Source of the DNA: an uncultured virus (IMG/VR IMGVR_UViG_3300036770_003021)
Taxonomy: Duplodnaviria; Heunggongvirae; Uroviricota; Caudoviricetes
Length of the DNA stretch: 20,000 nt
Strand: one strand, 5' to 3'
IMG/VR virus record: IMGVR_UViG_3300036770_003021
Span: 114,040 to 134,039 of that record
The translations under genes and the position numbers were made by a program. How positions within the stretch are numbered: the stretch's first letter is position 1; every line of letters starts with the position of its first letter. This document shows, in pieces, positions 1,490-11,631 of the stretch. The notes beneath the pieces are model-generated. The model was given only the letters and a program-made list of their open reading frames with translations, searched no databases and was not told where the DNA came from.

Positions 1490-1573
1490 ATAAAATCTTT
1501 GACAATCTCCGATTTCTTCACGGGACGATATTATCAGTCCTCGGCTCCATTGTCAAGTGGAGTTGTATTAAAA

Positions 1574-1665
1574 TGGCGGTTGATGTCCGTACTGCCCGGA
1601 CCTTCGTCTTTCAACGAACCTAGTTTTCAAGACTAGTGCAGCCAGCTTATATCTGCCTATCAACC
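1574..1665 (-). tRNA. tRNA-Ser(TGA)
   Basis: CTAGT-CT-TGA-AA-ACTAG, long variable arm, GCCA end; T-loop GGCAGTA. Confidence 0.88.
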
Positions 1666-1673
1666 GTATAAAT

Positions 1674-1758
1674 TGGTGGGCATAGAGGGACTTGAACCTC
1701 CACGGATTTCTCCCCGAGCTTCTAAGACTCGTGCGTCTGCCAATTTCGCCATATGCCC
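1674..1758 (-). tRNA. tRNA-Leu(TAG)
   Basis: CGAGT-CT-TAG-AA-GCTCG, variable arm, canonical T-loop, ACCA. Confidence 0.95.
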
Positions 1759-1764
1759 ATAAAA

Positions 1765-1838
1765 TGGTCGGCCACGCCAGAATTGAACTGGCTCCACATG
1801 CTCCCAAAGCACGGATGCTACCGTAACACCTGTGACCG
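1765..1838 (-). tRNA. tRNA-Pro(TGG)
   Basis: CGTGC-TT-TGG-GA-GCATG, canonical T-loop, ACCA. Confidence 0.93.
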
Positions 1839-1860
1839 TTTGATTTGTTAATCAAAAAAA

Positions 1861-1935
1861 TGGTAGGCGGTAAAGGATTTGAACCTCTGGCCTTGACCGT
1901 GTAAAGGTCCTGCTCTTCCACTGAGCTAACCGCCC
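1861..1935 (-). tRNA. tRNA-Val(TAC)
   Basis: GACC-TT-TAC-AC-GGTC, canonical D and T loops, ACCA. Confidence 0.95.
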
Positions 1936-2083
1936 ATTTAAAATTTGTTGGATTGTGTACCTATCGTTGGTAGCCCTTATTTCTAAGGACCGGCGTCTCC
2001 TATTCCTTGGCTCGCCTCTACGGTTTTGATCTCAGTTCAAACTTTCTAAAGACTGTTGATGTTGTTTACATCGTTATATTTCT

Positions 2084-2111
2084 AATTTACCACACCTTCT
2101 CATTTTGTCAA
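2084..2111 (-). promoter_or_regulatory. sigma70-type promoter at head of tRNA array 1
   Basis: TTGACA-16 nt (ending TGTGG)-TAAATT; same design at 7188-7215 and 11192-11219. Confidence 0.7.
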
Positions 2112-2123
2112 CACCTAAAAATC

Positions 2124-2158
2124 AAAAACCCGTCATTCTTTTTTTGAAGTGACGGGTT
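2124..2158 (-). terminator. Intrinsic terminator of attenuator 1
   Basis: AACCCGTCA...TGACGGGTT stem followed by T run; 5' arm overlaps antiterminator. Confidence 0.85.
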
Positions 2159-2187
2159 GGTTCTTTTAGGAGCAAACAACCTCGCCT

Positions 2188-2241
2188 TCAACTTCCGGAT
2201 GGGAGTTGACTGGCTTGACTAGGTTGTGAAATTAAATTCAT
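2188..2241 (-). CDS. Leader peptide 1, MNLISQPSQASQLPSGS (17 aa)
   Basis: ATG..TGA directly upstream of antiterminator/terminator; Ser/Gln/Pro/Gly/Leu codons match the downstream tRNAs. Confidence 0.75.
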   Translation of the reverse strand: MNLISQPSQASQLPSGS

Positions 2242-2288
2242 ATTGTTACTAATATATAGTATTCAAAATACAAAATCAACAAAATTTT

Positions 2289-3197
2289 TTAAAAAGTTTT
2301 AAATCCACTCAAATCGAACTCGTTAACTTTATATCCAACACTTAGTGATGATATTGTATTATTTATTTCGGTTATATAACTAGGAATACTTGTTCCAACA
2401 CCAGCAGAACTTCCTAATGTCATATACCAACCACCTATCAATACTATTTCATTATTAATAATAGTAGAGACAATATTGCCGCTGTCACCACCAATTAAAG
2501 CTTCAAAATATTGCGCTCTATTAGGATCTTTTGATAGATTTATTACTGTGTTATTTGATCCATATGAACCATTAATACCTCCAAATTCTCCAATCAAAGC
2601 TTTTCTTTCTTGATCAGAATATAGTATTGGGAAATTAATTTTGTTCACATCAAAATATTTGGTGTAATTAGCTGGCAATACACTGTATACTTTTAATGAA
2701 TCATCAACTTCTTTATCCAACTCACCAATTAAAATGTCTGTATTACCCACTCGTTTTGTTTTGACAACATTGTAAGTAAGTGTAACGTTATTATTATTTA
2801 CAAAGAAAATAAGAAATGGAGTTGATGAATAAGGCACGTGATTTGCAAATAATACATGTTTCTTAGTTATAAGTGTTCCGCCGCCAACTCCTCCTAAAGG
2901 TACAATACAAGAAGAATATCCCGTCAAATTAATACTCTTTGCCCAACAATTATTGTTTCTAGGCCAATTATAAGGATTAACATATGGAGTTAAAATATTC
3001 TTGTCTTTCTTTTCTTTAATTAAATTGTCAAAGTTAGAATTGATATGTGACAACAAATCCAACTTTACTACATTTGTTGTTCCAGTTATTCCTGATGATG
3101 ATGCTTGTGATGATAAAGCATCTTTCTTTGCCTGATCAATTATTTTTTGTAACAAAATTGCGTGTTCCGCTAATAAACTTTCCATTATAGTAGGCAT
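2289..3197 (-). CDS. Trypsin-like serine protease
   Basis: GGTLIT..HVLFANH (His), TDILIG (Asp), GGDSG (Ser) catalytic-triad motifs. Confidence 0.8.
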   Translation of the reverse strand: MPTIMESLLAEHAILLQKIIDQAKKDALSSQASSSGITGTTNVVKLDLLSHINSNFDNLIKEKKDKNILTPYVNPYNWPRNNNCWAKSINLTGYSSCIVPLGGVGGGTLITKKHVLFANHVPYSSTPFLIFFVNNNNVTLTYNVVKTKRVGNTDILIGELDKEVDDSLKVYSVLPANYTKYFDVNKINFPILYSDQERKALIGEFGGINGSYGSNNTVINLSKDPNRAQYFEALIGGDSGNIVSTIINNEIVLIGGWYMTLGSSAGVGTSIPSYITEINNTISSLSVGYKVNEFDLSGFKTF

Positions 3198-3235
3198 AAA
3201 ATAAATCTTTCTTTATTTATAAATATGCGCAAAAT

Positions 3236-3263
3236 AAAAAACCCGCTTATTTCTAAGCGGGTT
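3236..3263 (-). terminator. Intrinsic terminator after beta-barrel gene
   Basis: AACCCGCTTA-loop-TAAGCGGGTT then T run. Confidence 0.8.
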
Positions 3264-3288
3264 CACATTTGTAATTCTACAATTACTA

Positions 3289-3987
3289 TTAGAAGGTCAA
3301 TTTCAAACCACCAGAATATACAATGTCACCACTAAATTCACGGGTTGCCCAATTGTACTTGGTAGTATTAAAGTTGTTGTCATACCATCCAGCACTTACA
3401 AATGGAGTAAATACACCAAATGAAGTTTCAAACGGACGAGTCAATGCCAACTTTGCATTTACAGCGGTATAATCTTCTACCTTACCATACTCAACTCCAG
3501 GAGTTACAACAAATCCAAATGGAAGTTTTTGAGCACGTTCTGCACCAACAAATACACCACTTTGCTTCAAGTCTACATCATAATATCCACGAACATATGG
3601 TGTAACAATCTTGTTTGGTAGTGCCAACTTAACACCAAATTCAGTGCTGTTGGGAATACCAAAGTTACCAGCTTGGTGACGAGTTACAGTAGTATCCAAT
3701 CGTGCGGAAAATACATCCTTCCACACATTTACTTCTTTTCCAGCACCCAAAGTCCAATGAGACTGATCTAGGTCGCCATTGGCCAAAAGAGTACCACCCA
3801 AATATACATCCGCATACTTTAAACTCTTTACAGCACCTACACCCACAAATGGCGTGCCTTCAGAACGAGCTACACCGTTAACGATGTACTGGTTGTTATA
3901 ACCAGCCTCTACTGAGATGTTAGAATTATCTCCAGCAGTAACTGCTAGAGCGGTCAACAATGACACTAATACTAATACTTTCTTCAT
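3289..3987 (-). CDS. Outer-membrane beta-barrel protein (TorF/putative porin-like)
   Basis: Sec signal peptide, alternating amphipathic strands, C-terminal GLKLTF BamA-type signature. Confidence 0.75.
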   Translation of the reverse strand: MKKVLVLVSLLTALAVTAGDNSNISVEAGYNNQYIVNGVARSEGTPFVGVGAVKSLKYADVYLGGTLLANGDLDQSHWTLGAGKEVNVWKDVFSARLDTTVTRHQAGNFGIPNSTEFGVKLALPNKIVTPYVRGYYDVDLKQSGVFVGAERAQKLPFGFVVTPGVEYGKVEDYTAVNAKLALTRPFETSFGVFTPFVSAGWYDNNFNTTKYNWATREFSGDIVYSGGLKLTF

Positions 3988-10825: not shown

Positions 10826-10907
10826 TGGAGCCGTTGACAGGATTCGAACCTGCGATGATTTTCCAGTTTACAAAACTGGTGTTTTCAACCACTCAACTCA
10901 CAACGGC
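10826..10907 (-). tRNA. tRNA-Thr(TGT)
   Basis: CCAGT-TT-TGT-AA-ACTGG, canonical T-loop, CCA. Confidence 0.92.
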
Positions 10908-11101
10908 GTTAAATTTTCTTTACTTCAACATTCACAGTAATCACCTCAGTAATACTGTCATCGCCCTATGGGTTCTGTATTCCAGCATAACACCCACGGA
11001 CCAATCAATTGATTTTCCCAGACTTTACCCTATCGTCAATTTCTTGACTCACTGGAGGAGGTTCAACAGATGGAGTTTCAAACCTTCCTTACTCTTTATT
11101 C

Positions 11102-11129
11102 AGTCTATCACAGCTTTCGCCATTGTCAA
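11102..11129 (-). promoter_or_regulatory. sigma70-type promoter
   Basis: TTGACA-16 nt-TAGACT with TG extension. Confidence 0.55.
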
Positions 11130-11191
11130 CTGACTTTTAAAATTTCTTTTTCGTCATCCAATGAACTACTTACTTCGTTCACTGTTTAACT

Positions 11192-11219
11192 ACTTTACCA
11201 CACATCCAAAGAACGTCAA
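11192..11219 (-). promoter_or_regulatory. sigma70-type promoter at head of tRNA array 2
   Basis: TTGACG-16 nt (ending TGTGG)-TAAAGT. Confidence 0.65.
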
Positions 11220-11230
11220 CCCAGAAAATA

Positions 11231-11261
11231 AAAAAACCGTCACTTTTTTTCGGTGACGGTT
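11231..11261 (-). terminator. Intrinsic terminator of attenuator 2
   Basis: AACCGTCAC-loop-GTGACGGTT + T run; 5' arm overlaps antiterminator. Confidence 0.85.
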
Positions 11262-11288
11262 GATATTGTTTGGGTTTCAGATCTACAT

Positions 11289-11372
11289 TTACACAATATC
11301 AGCCGCCATACCTCTATCTTCACGATTTGTAAAGGTATTCCAACGCTTAATATTTGTATAATGTACTTTCAT
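11289..11372 (-). CDS. Leader peptide 2, MKVHYTNIKRWNTFTNREDRGMAADIV (27 aa)
   Basis: ATG..TAA whose 3' end is the antiterminator strand; codons 2-20 match anticodons of the downstream array. Confidence 0.8.
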   Translation of the reverse strand: MKVHYTNIKRWNTFTNREDRGMAADIV

Positions 11373-11631
11373 TACGTTAATATATATCAAGAAATTTACT
11401 AAACGTCAATATTTTTTTGCAAAATTCTTTATAACCTTATAACAACTATAAAAACAATACAGTGTCAAAGCACTCAAAGCACCCACTCCAAAACTCATAC
11501 CAATTGTTATAACCCAACCAATTATATTACGTTGCTCTTCGCTCAATGTAAACATATCGCACAATACATACTTGTTTTTCAATCATTAAACTTATTATAT
11601 TAAATTAAAATTATAAACAACTATTAACGCA

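Follow-up and report, generated by a model that had tools for sequence, protein, structure and literature searches.

Why should a 17-codon open reading frame (ORF), spelled in the amino acids of the transfer RNA (tRNA) genes behind it and followed at once by an intrinsic terminator, stand at the head of a viral tRNA array? The question is raised by a stretch of 20,000 nucleotides (nt) from an uncultured virus of the Caudoviricetes (IMG/VR record IMGVR_UViG_3300036770_003021, positions 114,040 to 134,039), here called the window, which is the final 20 kb of a 134-kb contig with an estimated completeness of 48% and a G+C content of 34%. The answer we lean towards, with somewhat better than even confidence, is that positions 2279-2117 on the minus strand form a ribosome-read leader-peptide transcription attenuator, here called module 1, which heads tRNA array 1 and senses the decoding of the codons that this array serves. 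By analogy, such an element would probably work like the attenuator of the trp operon but gauge tRNA supply. The case for it is built from sequence features, their conservation, a match between codons and tRNA isotypes, and alternative pairings found in silico, and it is carried as much by a sister module in front of a second array as by module 1 itself. If the reading is true, tRNA genes in phages would be under direct feedback from the decoding of their own codons through a compact, multivalent sensor of tRNA availability, which bears on why large phages carry tRNA arrays and how such arrays are regulated.

All features described below lie on the minus strand unless otherwise said, and their coordinates were counted by hand from the sequence. 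Module 1 follows the stop of an upstream 302-amino-acid (aa) ORF (2289). Its promoter A (2279-2251) consists of a -35 element TTGATT (2279-2274), a 17-nt spacer and a -10 element TATATT (2256-2251); the TATATATTA in front of the start codon is, on its letters, best read as the -10 region of this promoter. The ATG of ORF1 lies 9 nt 3' of the -10 element, with the predicted transcript start 2-4 nt 5' of the ATG, and the frame has no Shine-Dalgarno sequence and a very short or absent 5' leader. ORF1 (2241-2188, with the ATG at 2241-2239 and the TGA at 2190-2188) holds 17 sense codons (MNLISQPSQASQLPSGS) and reads, exactly as the first-pass annotation of the window had it, ATG AAT TTA ATT TCA CAA CCT AGT CAA GCC AGT CAA CTC CCA TCC GGA AGT TGA. 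Within it lie region 1, the ACAACCT of codons 5-7 (2227-2221), which is complementary to region 2, and an inner hairpin predicted by folding, TCAACT (2209-2204) with AGTTGA (2193-2188), that contains the last sense codon and the stop. Region 2, GGCGAGGTTGT (2186-2176), begins 2 nt past the TGA and can pair with region 1 or with region 3, as judged by duplex and nascent folds. Region 3 opens the intrinsic terminator (2159-2117), in which CAACCCGTCA (2159-2150) is followed by an A-rich loop, TGACGGGTT (2135-2127) and TTTTTGATTTTT; the stem pairs AACCCGTCA (2158-2150) with TGACGGGTT in a hairpin of 9+3 pairs ahead of a T tract. A simple terminator scan did not list this hairpin, the loop of which exceeds 8 nt. 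Directly 3' of the terminator stands promoter B (2111-2084), TTGACA-16-TGGTAAATT with an extended -10 (TGG-TAAATT), which has 10 of 12 consensus matches with the TG present and is conserved both in relatives and in the sister module. An RNA leader of about 140 nt (2077-1936), recognised from the sequence and from relatives, then separates promoter B from tRNA-Val (1935-1861), the first gene of array 1.

These parts suggest how the switch might operate. A transcript from promoter A would start a few bases 5' of the ORF1 ATG and be read by a ribosome. A ribosome that reaches the TGA would, given the general size of a ribosome's footprint, mask GGCGAGGTTGT, whereupon the AACCCGTCA/TGACGGGTT hairpin would form and transcription would stop in the T tract. 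A ribosome lingering on codons 3-13 (Ser, Gln, Pro, Ala and Leu, with Val in relatives) would instead mask ACAACCT and leave GGCGAGGTTGT free to pair with CAACCCGTC in the emerging 5' arm of the terminator, and polymerase would read on into the array, on top of the output of promoter B. Because the amino acids of ORF1 are those carried by the tRNAs that follow it, the state of the switch would reflect how efficiently these codons are decoded and would feed back on the supply of the corresponding tRNAs; in the sister module the same logic would apply to array 2 with another set of amino acids. Three steps of this scheme we infer, namely that ORF1 is translated, that termination responds to this translation, and that the signal sensed is tRNA supply. 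As to the first, translation from a leader of 2-4 nt is assumed, and two habits of the phage alone make it plausible: 15 of its 97 long ORFs have a Shine-Dalgarno-like 4-mer, and a T at position -1 of the ATG, the context that ORF1 also has, is found in 71% of them.

The match between the codons of ORF1 and the content of array 1 is close. Array 1 (1935-240) encodes, in order, Val UAC, Pro UGG, Leu UAG, Ser UGA, an internal promoter, Ser GCU, Gly UCC, Gln UUG, an HNH gene, a further Gln UUG and a further Pro UGG, by the combined calls of ARAGORN, Rfam and hand inspection. ARAGORN and Rfam between them call Val UAC, Pro UGG, Leu UAG, Gly UCC and Gln UUG, with two further unnamed Rfam hits; Ser UGA (1665-1574) and Ser GCU (1489-1399) were called by hand through comparison with relatives, and the second Gln UUG (1227-1153) and the last Pro UGG (312-240) come from low-threshold ARAGORN output and folds, with the HNH gene at 1092-409. 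The gene at 312-240 is not a tRNA-Ser; its anticodon by fold reading is UGG, that is, Pro. Immediately beyond the left edge of the window are tRNAs for Ala UGC and Gly GCC, in partial agreement with an earlier prediction that Leu and Ala genes might be found there: Ala (UGC) is present and Leu is not. The isotypes of array 1 are accordingly Val, Pro, Leu, Ser, Gly, Gln and Ala, and the array has the same content in nine relatives, in five of which ARAGORN calls Ser GCU.

Codons 5-17 of ORF1 read S Q P S Q A S Q L P S G S, all 13 within this set. The first-pass count of 12 codons for Ser, Gln, Pro, Gly or Leu was correct, and the thirteenth, Ala, is matched by the tRNA-Ala(TGC) left of the window. 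Its list of directly cognate codons stands in part, since six codons (TCA, CAA three times, CCA and GGA) are Watson-Crick cognates, while AGT, which occurs three times, is read by G-U wobble with GCU; decoding of CCT, GCC, CTC and TCC relies on the general rule of four-way reading by U34. Val is the exception, as tRNA-Val heads the array yet the ORF1 of the window has no Val codon. As a control, 127 of 38,984 windows of 13 residues in the long ORFs of the phage lie wholly within the array 1 set, and none of these covers at least 6 of the 7 isotypes; among 1056 short ORFs on the contig, the in-set fraction of ORF1 falls in the top 0.5%.

Both Ser tRNAs, on which part of this match depends, fold as type II cloverleaves with a long extra arm and odd T loops (z = -2.7 and -3.8), and it is apparently because of these loops that ARAGORN and Rfam miss them. 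The T loop is of the GGCAGYA type in both (1489-1399 and 1665-1574), and a GGAGCGTAACC T arm occurs in several other tRNA-like genes (1227-1153, 5323-5233 and 6722-6649) that the two programs miss or score low. Since tRNAs with such loops escape or score poorly, the tRNA count of the phage is underestimated by standard tools. Two further genes are unusual in other ways. A tRNA-like gene at 10729-10654 is given a four-base anticodon, ctct, by ARAGORN and becomes Gln(ctg) with a 3-nt insert at low threshold; it is kept at the same place in the relatives G003, G004 and G011. Likewise, a tRNA-Asn(GTT) at 9115-8992 has an insert of about 51 nt in its anticodon loop, is recovered as a 123-nt Rfam hit and by low-threshold ARAGORN, and takes the same form in G011.

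If ORF1 is read by ribosomes for its codons and not for its product, its frame should be kept and its peptide should be free to drift, and this is what the relatives indicate. To avoid ascertainment on the ORF, relatives were sought with region 2 and region 3 as the anchor, which lie outside it and which returned 28 IMG/VR loci with 22 distinct sequences, and in another search, for the same reason, with the terminator-promoter junction. In 8 loci (5 of 22 sequence groups) the letters of the ORF were judged by eye to be identical to those of the window. The ORF region is present in 27 of the 28 loci, with 17 codons and TGA in 25 of the 27 and a frame of 66 codons ending at the same TGA in the remaining 2. 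A frameshifted ORF in homologues had been named in advance as evidence that would speak against an attenuator, and none of the 27 loci that hold the ORF region has one. Six variants of the 17-residue peptide occur, MNLISQPSQASQLPSGS, MNSVSQPSQASQLPSGS, MISQSQPSQASQLPSGS, MISQSQPNQASQSPVGY, MILSSQPSLVSQAPSGY and MNSKPQPSLASQFPSGY. By codon position, 5, 9 and 5 of 16 columns vary at first, second and third positions, respectively; with second positions the most variable and with length and stop fixed, selection keeps the frame, the length and the stop, and not the peptide. Insertions and deletions (indels) affect the 5' leader, the spacer that separates region 2 from region 3 and the loop of the terminator, and none falls within ORF1 among relatives with 17 codons. 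Codons 5-16 show replacements by P, N, L, V, S, A, F and V; 6 of these 8 non-synonymous alternatives fall within the array 1 set, and among the replacement codons CTA (once) and GTA (twice) match the anticodons of Leu UAG and Val UAC exactly. In promoter A, TTGATT and TATATATT are retained in all relatives, with a variable spacer between them; the TATATATT motif recurs in promoter-like sites across the contig, once directly 5' of tRNA-Gly.

A second expectation concerns linkage. Had the terminator served simply to end the transcript of the upstream gene, another outcome named beforehand as contrary to the attenuator, the element should follow that gene, whereas it follows the tRNA array. Relatives of the 302-aa neighbour are found in 16 IMG/VR loci, with the element behind them in 5 and other DNA in 11, and among 20 loci found with a 23-mer of the ORF the element, promoter B and tRNA-Val stay the same behind at least 5 kinds of upstream flank. 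The varied flanks and the neighbour loci without the element together indicate that it belongs to the tRNA array and not to the upstream gene. That gene had been labelled a protease, a label for which comparison with Pfam and PHROG profiles, neither of which gave a hit, offers no support. BLAST of positions 1840-2400 against GenBank phages recovered the tRNA-Val only, in 7 records. Freshwater or riverine metatranscriptome contigs from four runs (X1-X4), compared with positions 1500-3300, cover two separate intervals, 1933-2133 and 2174-2291, with no contig that spans the terminator; as such contigs reveal neither the ends nor the levels of transcripts, they are uninformative here.

The structural elements of module 1 are still more constant than its frame. 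Regions 1, 2 and 3 and the terminator are nearly invariant in 18 distinct sequences, and the pairings have 98% and 90% of their cells paired, against 19-49% in controls with slid pairing. In region 1, 6 of 7 pairs are invariant; in region 2 the core GGTTG:CAACC and one G-C pair are invariant, with variable flanking pairs, and this core lies 7 nt past the TGA in all variants; all 9 terminator pairs are kept, 100% of cells being paired with one G-C/G-U change; and in the inner hairpin one pair has changed on both sides, from C-G to U-A, in 2 of the 18 sequences. The upstream complement to the 5' arm of the terminator reaches -12.8 kcal/mol, compared with -6.4 +/- 1.9 in 1000 dinucleotide shuffles, 4 of which do as well. 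In nascent folds without the 3' arm, region 2 pairs with region 3 in 16 of the 18 free RNAs and in all 18 when region 1 is masked.

Near-invariance at the level of nucleotides could also mean that the transcript matters as an RNA. It may be proposed that the product of about 125 nt from promoter A to the terminator is a small non-coding RNA (sRNA) or a protein-binding RNA, with CACAACCT, GAGGTTGTTTGCT and CAACCCGTCA as seed or binding sites and the ORF incidental. Two hairpins and an intrinsic terminator are a typical sRNA layout, the core is nearly invariant while the neighbouring protein is only about 75% identical across relatives, and the start codon has no Shine-Dalgarno sequence and almost no 5' leader. 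We consider this improbable. The most divergent variants change second and third codon positions freely and never the frame or the stop; the sole large insertion is in frame (49 codons); the T at -1 of the ATG is the start context of the phage itself, the genes of which generally do without a Shine-Dalgarno sequence; and no Rfam family matches.

The attenuator reading gains much from the fact that the same architecture recurs in front of array 2, which starts at 10907. Sister module 2 (11409-11192) was delimited by alignment to module 1, folds and relatives. Its promoter has TTGACG at 11409-11404 and a -10 element at 11386-11381; ORF2, of 27 codons, spans 11372-11289, with its ATG 6 nt after TATATT; region 1 lies at about 11366-11344, region 2, GGCGGCTGATATTG, at 11307-11294 and region 3, CAATATCAACCGTC, at 11268-11255, as placed from sequence and folds; the terminator pairs 11261-11253 with 11243-11235; and promoter B2 follows at 11219-11192. 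The first-pass annotation had noted in both modules a common CCGTCAC terminator, TATATATTA before the ATG and a following promoter, all of which are indeed present, and the shared scaffold can be described as a promoter with TATATATTA, a small ORF, the CCGTCAC hairpin and a GTTGAC...TGTGGTAAA promoter. A hairpin of the form CCGTCA...TGACGG occurs at two sites only in the 134-kb contig, one ahead of each array (its inverted symmetry turns the two sites into four pattern matches, one on each strand). The two modules had been called independent, which they are not fully: the promoters, terminators and second promoters align, and the scaffolds are hence paralogous.

Within this common scaffold, ORF2 is kept open. 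All 7 distinct variants retain it, though they differ by 6-nt indels that preserve the frame, by synonymous changes and by TAA or TAG at the same place; it is also present in the complete relative G011, and its variable columns number 8, 3 and 9 of 26 at first, second and third codon positions, second positions being the least variable. Further, the structural switch that would be required of an attenuator is seen in folds of this module. Without a mask, codons 4-9 form a helix with codons 22-27 alongside the terminator; a mask of about 36-60 nt lets GGCGGCTGATATTG pair with CAATATCAACCGTC at the cost of the terminator; and with at least 66 nt masked the terminator is back. Mask-driven switching of this kind occurs in 7 of 7 variants, with a narrow masking window in two, and on these models module 2 is a textbook 1:2 / 2:3 / 3:4 attenuator switch in silico. 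Its 1:2 helix and terminator have 5 pairs changed on both sides, compared with 1.4 in shuffles (1 of 500), and a covariation score of 0.136 against 0.01-0.04 with slid pairing. Pairing in the antiterminator is 95%, one position having three pair types and none a two-sided change, and its duplex reaches -20.0 kcal/mol against -8.4 +/- 2.1 in shuffles, none of 1000 of which attains it.

Likewise, the codons of the two frames follow their respective arrays. A hand tally, for which the tRNAs of the window were used including low-threshold Asn, Ile and Thr GGU (called in relatives at default settings), assigns 13 codons of ORF1 to array 1 and 2 to array 2, leaving 1 that neither can read; of the 26 codons of ORF2 it assigns 5 to array 1 and 15 to array 2, the other 6 being unreadable by both or uncertain (Fisher p = 5e-4). 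Across the family, codons 2-19 of ORF2 name every isotype of array 2 (Thr, His, Arg, Glu, Trp, Asn, Tyr, Lys, Asp, Ile, Cys and Phe), with Val as the sole outsider; of 38,439 windows of 18 residues in the long ORFs of the phage, 62 have at least 17 residues in the array 2 set and none covers at least 11 isotypes. With complementary codon sets in a common architecture, each module is a specificity control for the other. It is this reciprocity that bears on whether composition matters at all, as a translation-coupled switch could instead report general capacity, be it ribosome availability, amino-acid starvation or host shut-off, with the composition of the frame secondary. Such a switch would draw on the same structural evidence; the codon match is based on post hoc statistics, and the first three codons of ORF1 and the last seven of ORF2 are off-set. 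That the two sets of amino acids are almost disjoint, each following its own array, and that codons 2-19 of ORF2 include every array 2 isotype family-wide, speak against such an indifferent sensor, and we hold it to be quite unlikely.

A number of observations nevertheless weigh against the attenuator and must be set beside it. The first group concerns the codons. The codon-match statistics are post hoc throughout; the two Ser tRNAs, called by neither ARAGORN nor Rfam in the window, are hand calls only; the AGTCAA repeat inside ORF1 means that its codons are not independent; and synteny is conserved in the family, with the result that relatives add no independent pairings of codons and arrays. 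The tendency of ORF1 replacements to remain within the array 1 set has a binomial p of 0.08, and when only distinct amino acids are counted the reciprocal tally weakens to p = 0.065. The second group concerns the folds. The first-pass annotation had proposed that GGCGAGGTTGT pairs alternatively upstream or with the terminator arm; both partners are present and conserved, but in full-length folds of module 1 the terminator is the minimum-energy structure under every mask. With the terminator prevailing whenever the 3' arm has been made, a switch in module 1 could only be kinetic. The 2:3 helix, with an invariant core of just 5-6 pairs, is a weak antiterminator, and only 2 of the 18 variants adopt the 1:2 helix as the lowest-energy structure of the free nascent RNA. 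Two-sided changes affect 1 of 24 pairs, the one in the inner hairpin, and are no better than in shuffles (217 of 500); as the helices of module 1 barely vary, covariation neither proves nor disproves them.

The third group concerns the promoters. Of the features expected of an attenuator, module 1 has a frame-conserved short ORF, enriched codons, an intrinsic terminator and a stop placed to mask segment 2, and it departs from expectation in that a near-consensus promoter (B, 2111-2084) intervenes between terminator and genes; array 2 has two near-consensus promoters in the corresponding interval. With promoter B in this position, attenuation cannot be the only control of the array, and read-through can only add to a constitutive promoter output, unless the promoters differ in timing.

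Further evidence against the attenuator also favours a rival reading, in which ORF1 would be a stand-alone tiny gene with a constitutive terminator, encoding either a micropeptide or the remnant of a 66-aa gene, with the terminator insulating promoter B and the array from transcription upstream, and the codon match a product of coincidence or of shared history. Promoter B frees the array from read-through; the terminator prevails in all equilibrium folds of module 1; terminator-promoter junctions like this one are found in other phages in front of ordinary protein genes; and the third tRNA array of G011 does without such an element, a module having been looked for there as a further matched leader and none found. 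A version of the ORF with 66 codons exists (L135/L153 and L198/L201), which has the same promoter, ends in PSQASQLPSES at the usual TGA and has AGAACCT as its region 1, and judged from this variant's sequence the 17-codon frame could be left over from a small protein gene or be exchangeable with one. The 66-codon form arises by a 147-nt in-frame insertion (49 codons) after the start and contains a tandem VTVSEP repeat. Even so, a functional peptide should keep its amino acids, yet variation is greatest at second positions (9 of 16), length and stop being fixed, and a remnant should decay, yet 27 of 27 loci keep the frame to the same TGA. A tiny gene moreover leaves unexplained the significant complement to the terminator arm that lies at the stop codon in both modules, the reciprocal sets of amino acids, and the linkage to the array in place of the upstream gene. 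We therefore regard it as unlikely, though a stronger contender than the sRNA or the indifferent sensor, and retain the attenuator as the reading that we lean towards.

Beyond the single locus, the two modules invite a broader proposal, which we offer tentatively and with rather less than even confidence: giant phages may gauge decoding, codon by codon and separately for each tRNA block, by means of multivalent, leaderless mini-genes coupled to terminators, raising transcription of that block when its decoding slows. The slowdown could come from cleavage of host tRNAs by anticodon nucleases or from host shut-off. If true, the modules would amount to a homeostat by which a virus steadies its tRNA supply, and to a natural sensor of defences that target tRNAs. 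The phage in question is a large one, as the relative G011 is a 296-kb record rated 100% complete and, with a complete genome of this size, a jumbo phage. The third tRNA cluster of G011 (L208, G011:C1:275501-282000) lies on the other strand, encodes Arg, Lys, Glu, Met, Ile, Leu, Leu, Ile and Lys, and stands behind a TTGAC...TGGTAAATT promoter. The metatranscriptome runs with parts of the stretch are labelled freshwater or riverine.

Several features of the surroundings deserve mention in their own right. All tRNA genes of the window are on the minus strand and are interspersed with homing endonuclease genes of the HNH and GIY-YIG types and a Mom-like gene; these insertions of endonuclease and Mom-like DNA modification genes among the tRNAs lie at 1092-409, 8688-8302, 10242-9493 and 8043-7234, and they divide the arrays into sub-blocks, each with its own promoter-like sites. 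Folding of the leader RNA that separates promoter B from the first tRNA of each array is no better than in shuffles, or slightly better (z = -2.1 for array 1 and +0.3 for array 2). These conserved leaders (2077-1936 and 11095-10908) are of two sequence types, and since array 1 of most relatives carries the leader type found at array 2 in the window, leaders have evidently been exchanged between arrays. Finally, ORFs with QPVVY repeats were considered as further leaders and rejected, being secreted repeat proteins of 100 aa whose junctions are followed by a protein gene and not by tRNAs. The QPVVY proteins (L058, L059, L067, L076, L082, L104 and others) have 100-120 aa, a signal-peptide-like start and a His-rich end (HYHHH), and each of their genes is followed by a terminator-promoter junction of the same kind and then by a P-loop ATPase-like gene.

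How, then, does the proposed attenuator compare with systems already understood? Leader-peptide attenuators are well established in enterobacteria, where trpL, hisL, leuL, thrL and pheL each precede an operon and where the leader of ilvGMEDA is multivalent. In common with the leaders of amino-acid operons, module 1 has a short ORF containing the codons proposed to be sensed, a stop placed for the ribosome to mask segment 2, a segment 2 that can pair with segment 1 or segment 3, and an intrinsic terminator made of segments 3 and 4; with the ilv leader in particular it shares a mixture of several amino acids in place of a single run. It differs from them in being a phage element with tRNA genes behind it instead of biosynthetic enzymes, in an ORF without a Shine-Dalgarno sequence, almost without a 5' leader and without runs of a single codon, and in the strong promoter between its terminator and the genes. 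No Rfam model of a leader (Trp, His, Leu or Thr), T-box or sRNA reached its gathering score over the whole window, in which only tRNAs did, and leader and T-box models gave nothing at E values up to 1-5 over 1-2400, 1930-2300 and 10900-11500.

Two systems come closer in what they control. The pheST attenuator of E. coli, with its pheM leader, is cellular, governs phenylalanyl-tRNA synthetase and senses one amino acid. As is proposed for module 1, it places a gene of the translation apparatus under leader-peptide attenuation such that poor decoding leads to more charged tRNA; unlike it, module 1 is thought of here to control the tRNA genes themselves and to sense 6-7 isotypes at once. The T-box does its sensing without a ribosome: its specifier codon and T-box sequence bind the uncharged tRNA themselves. 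It resembles module 1 in that terminator and antiterminator alternatives in a 5' leader report the state of tRNA and control translation-related genes, and it differs in that module 1 has a conserved ORF. In the portion of the literature that full-text searches reached, no account of leader-peptide attenuation of tRNA genes was found. Leader-peptide attenuation is the textbook mechanism for amino-acid operons, and what we propose here is its application to tRNA genes.

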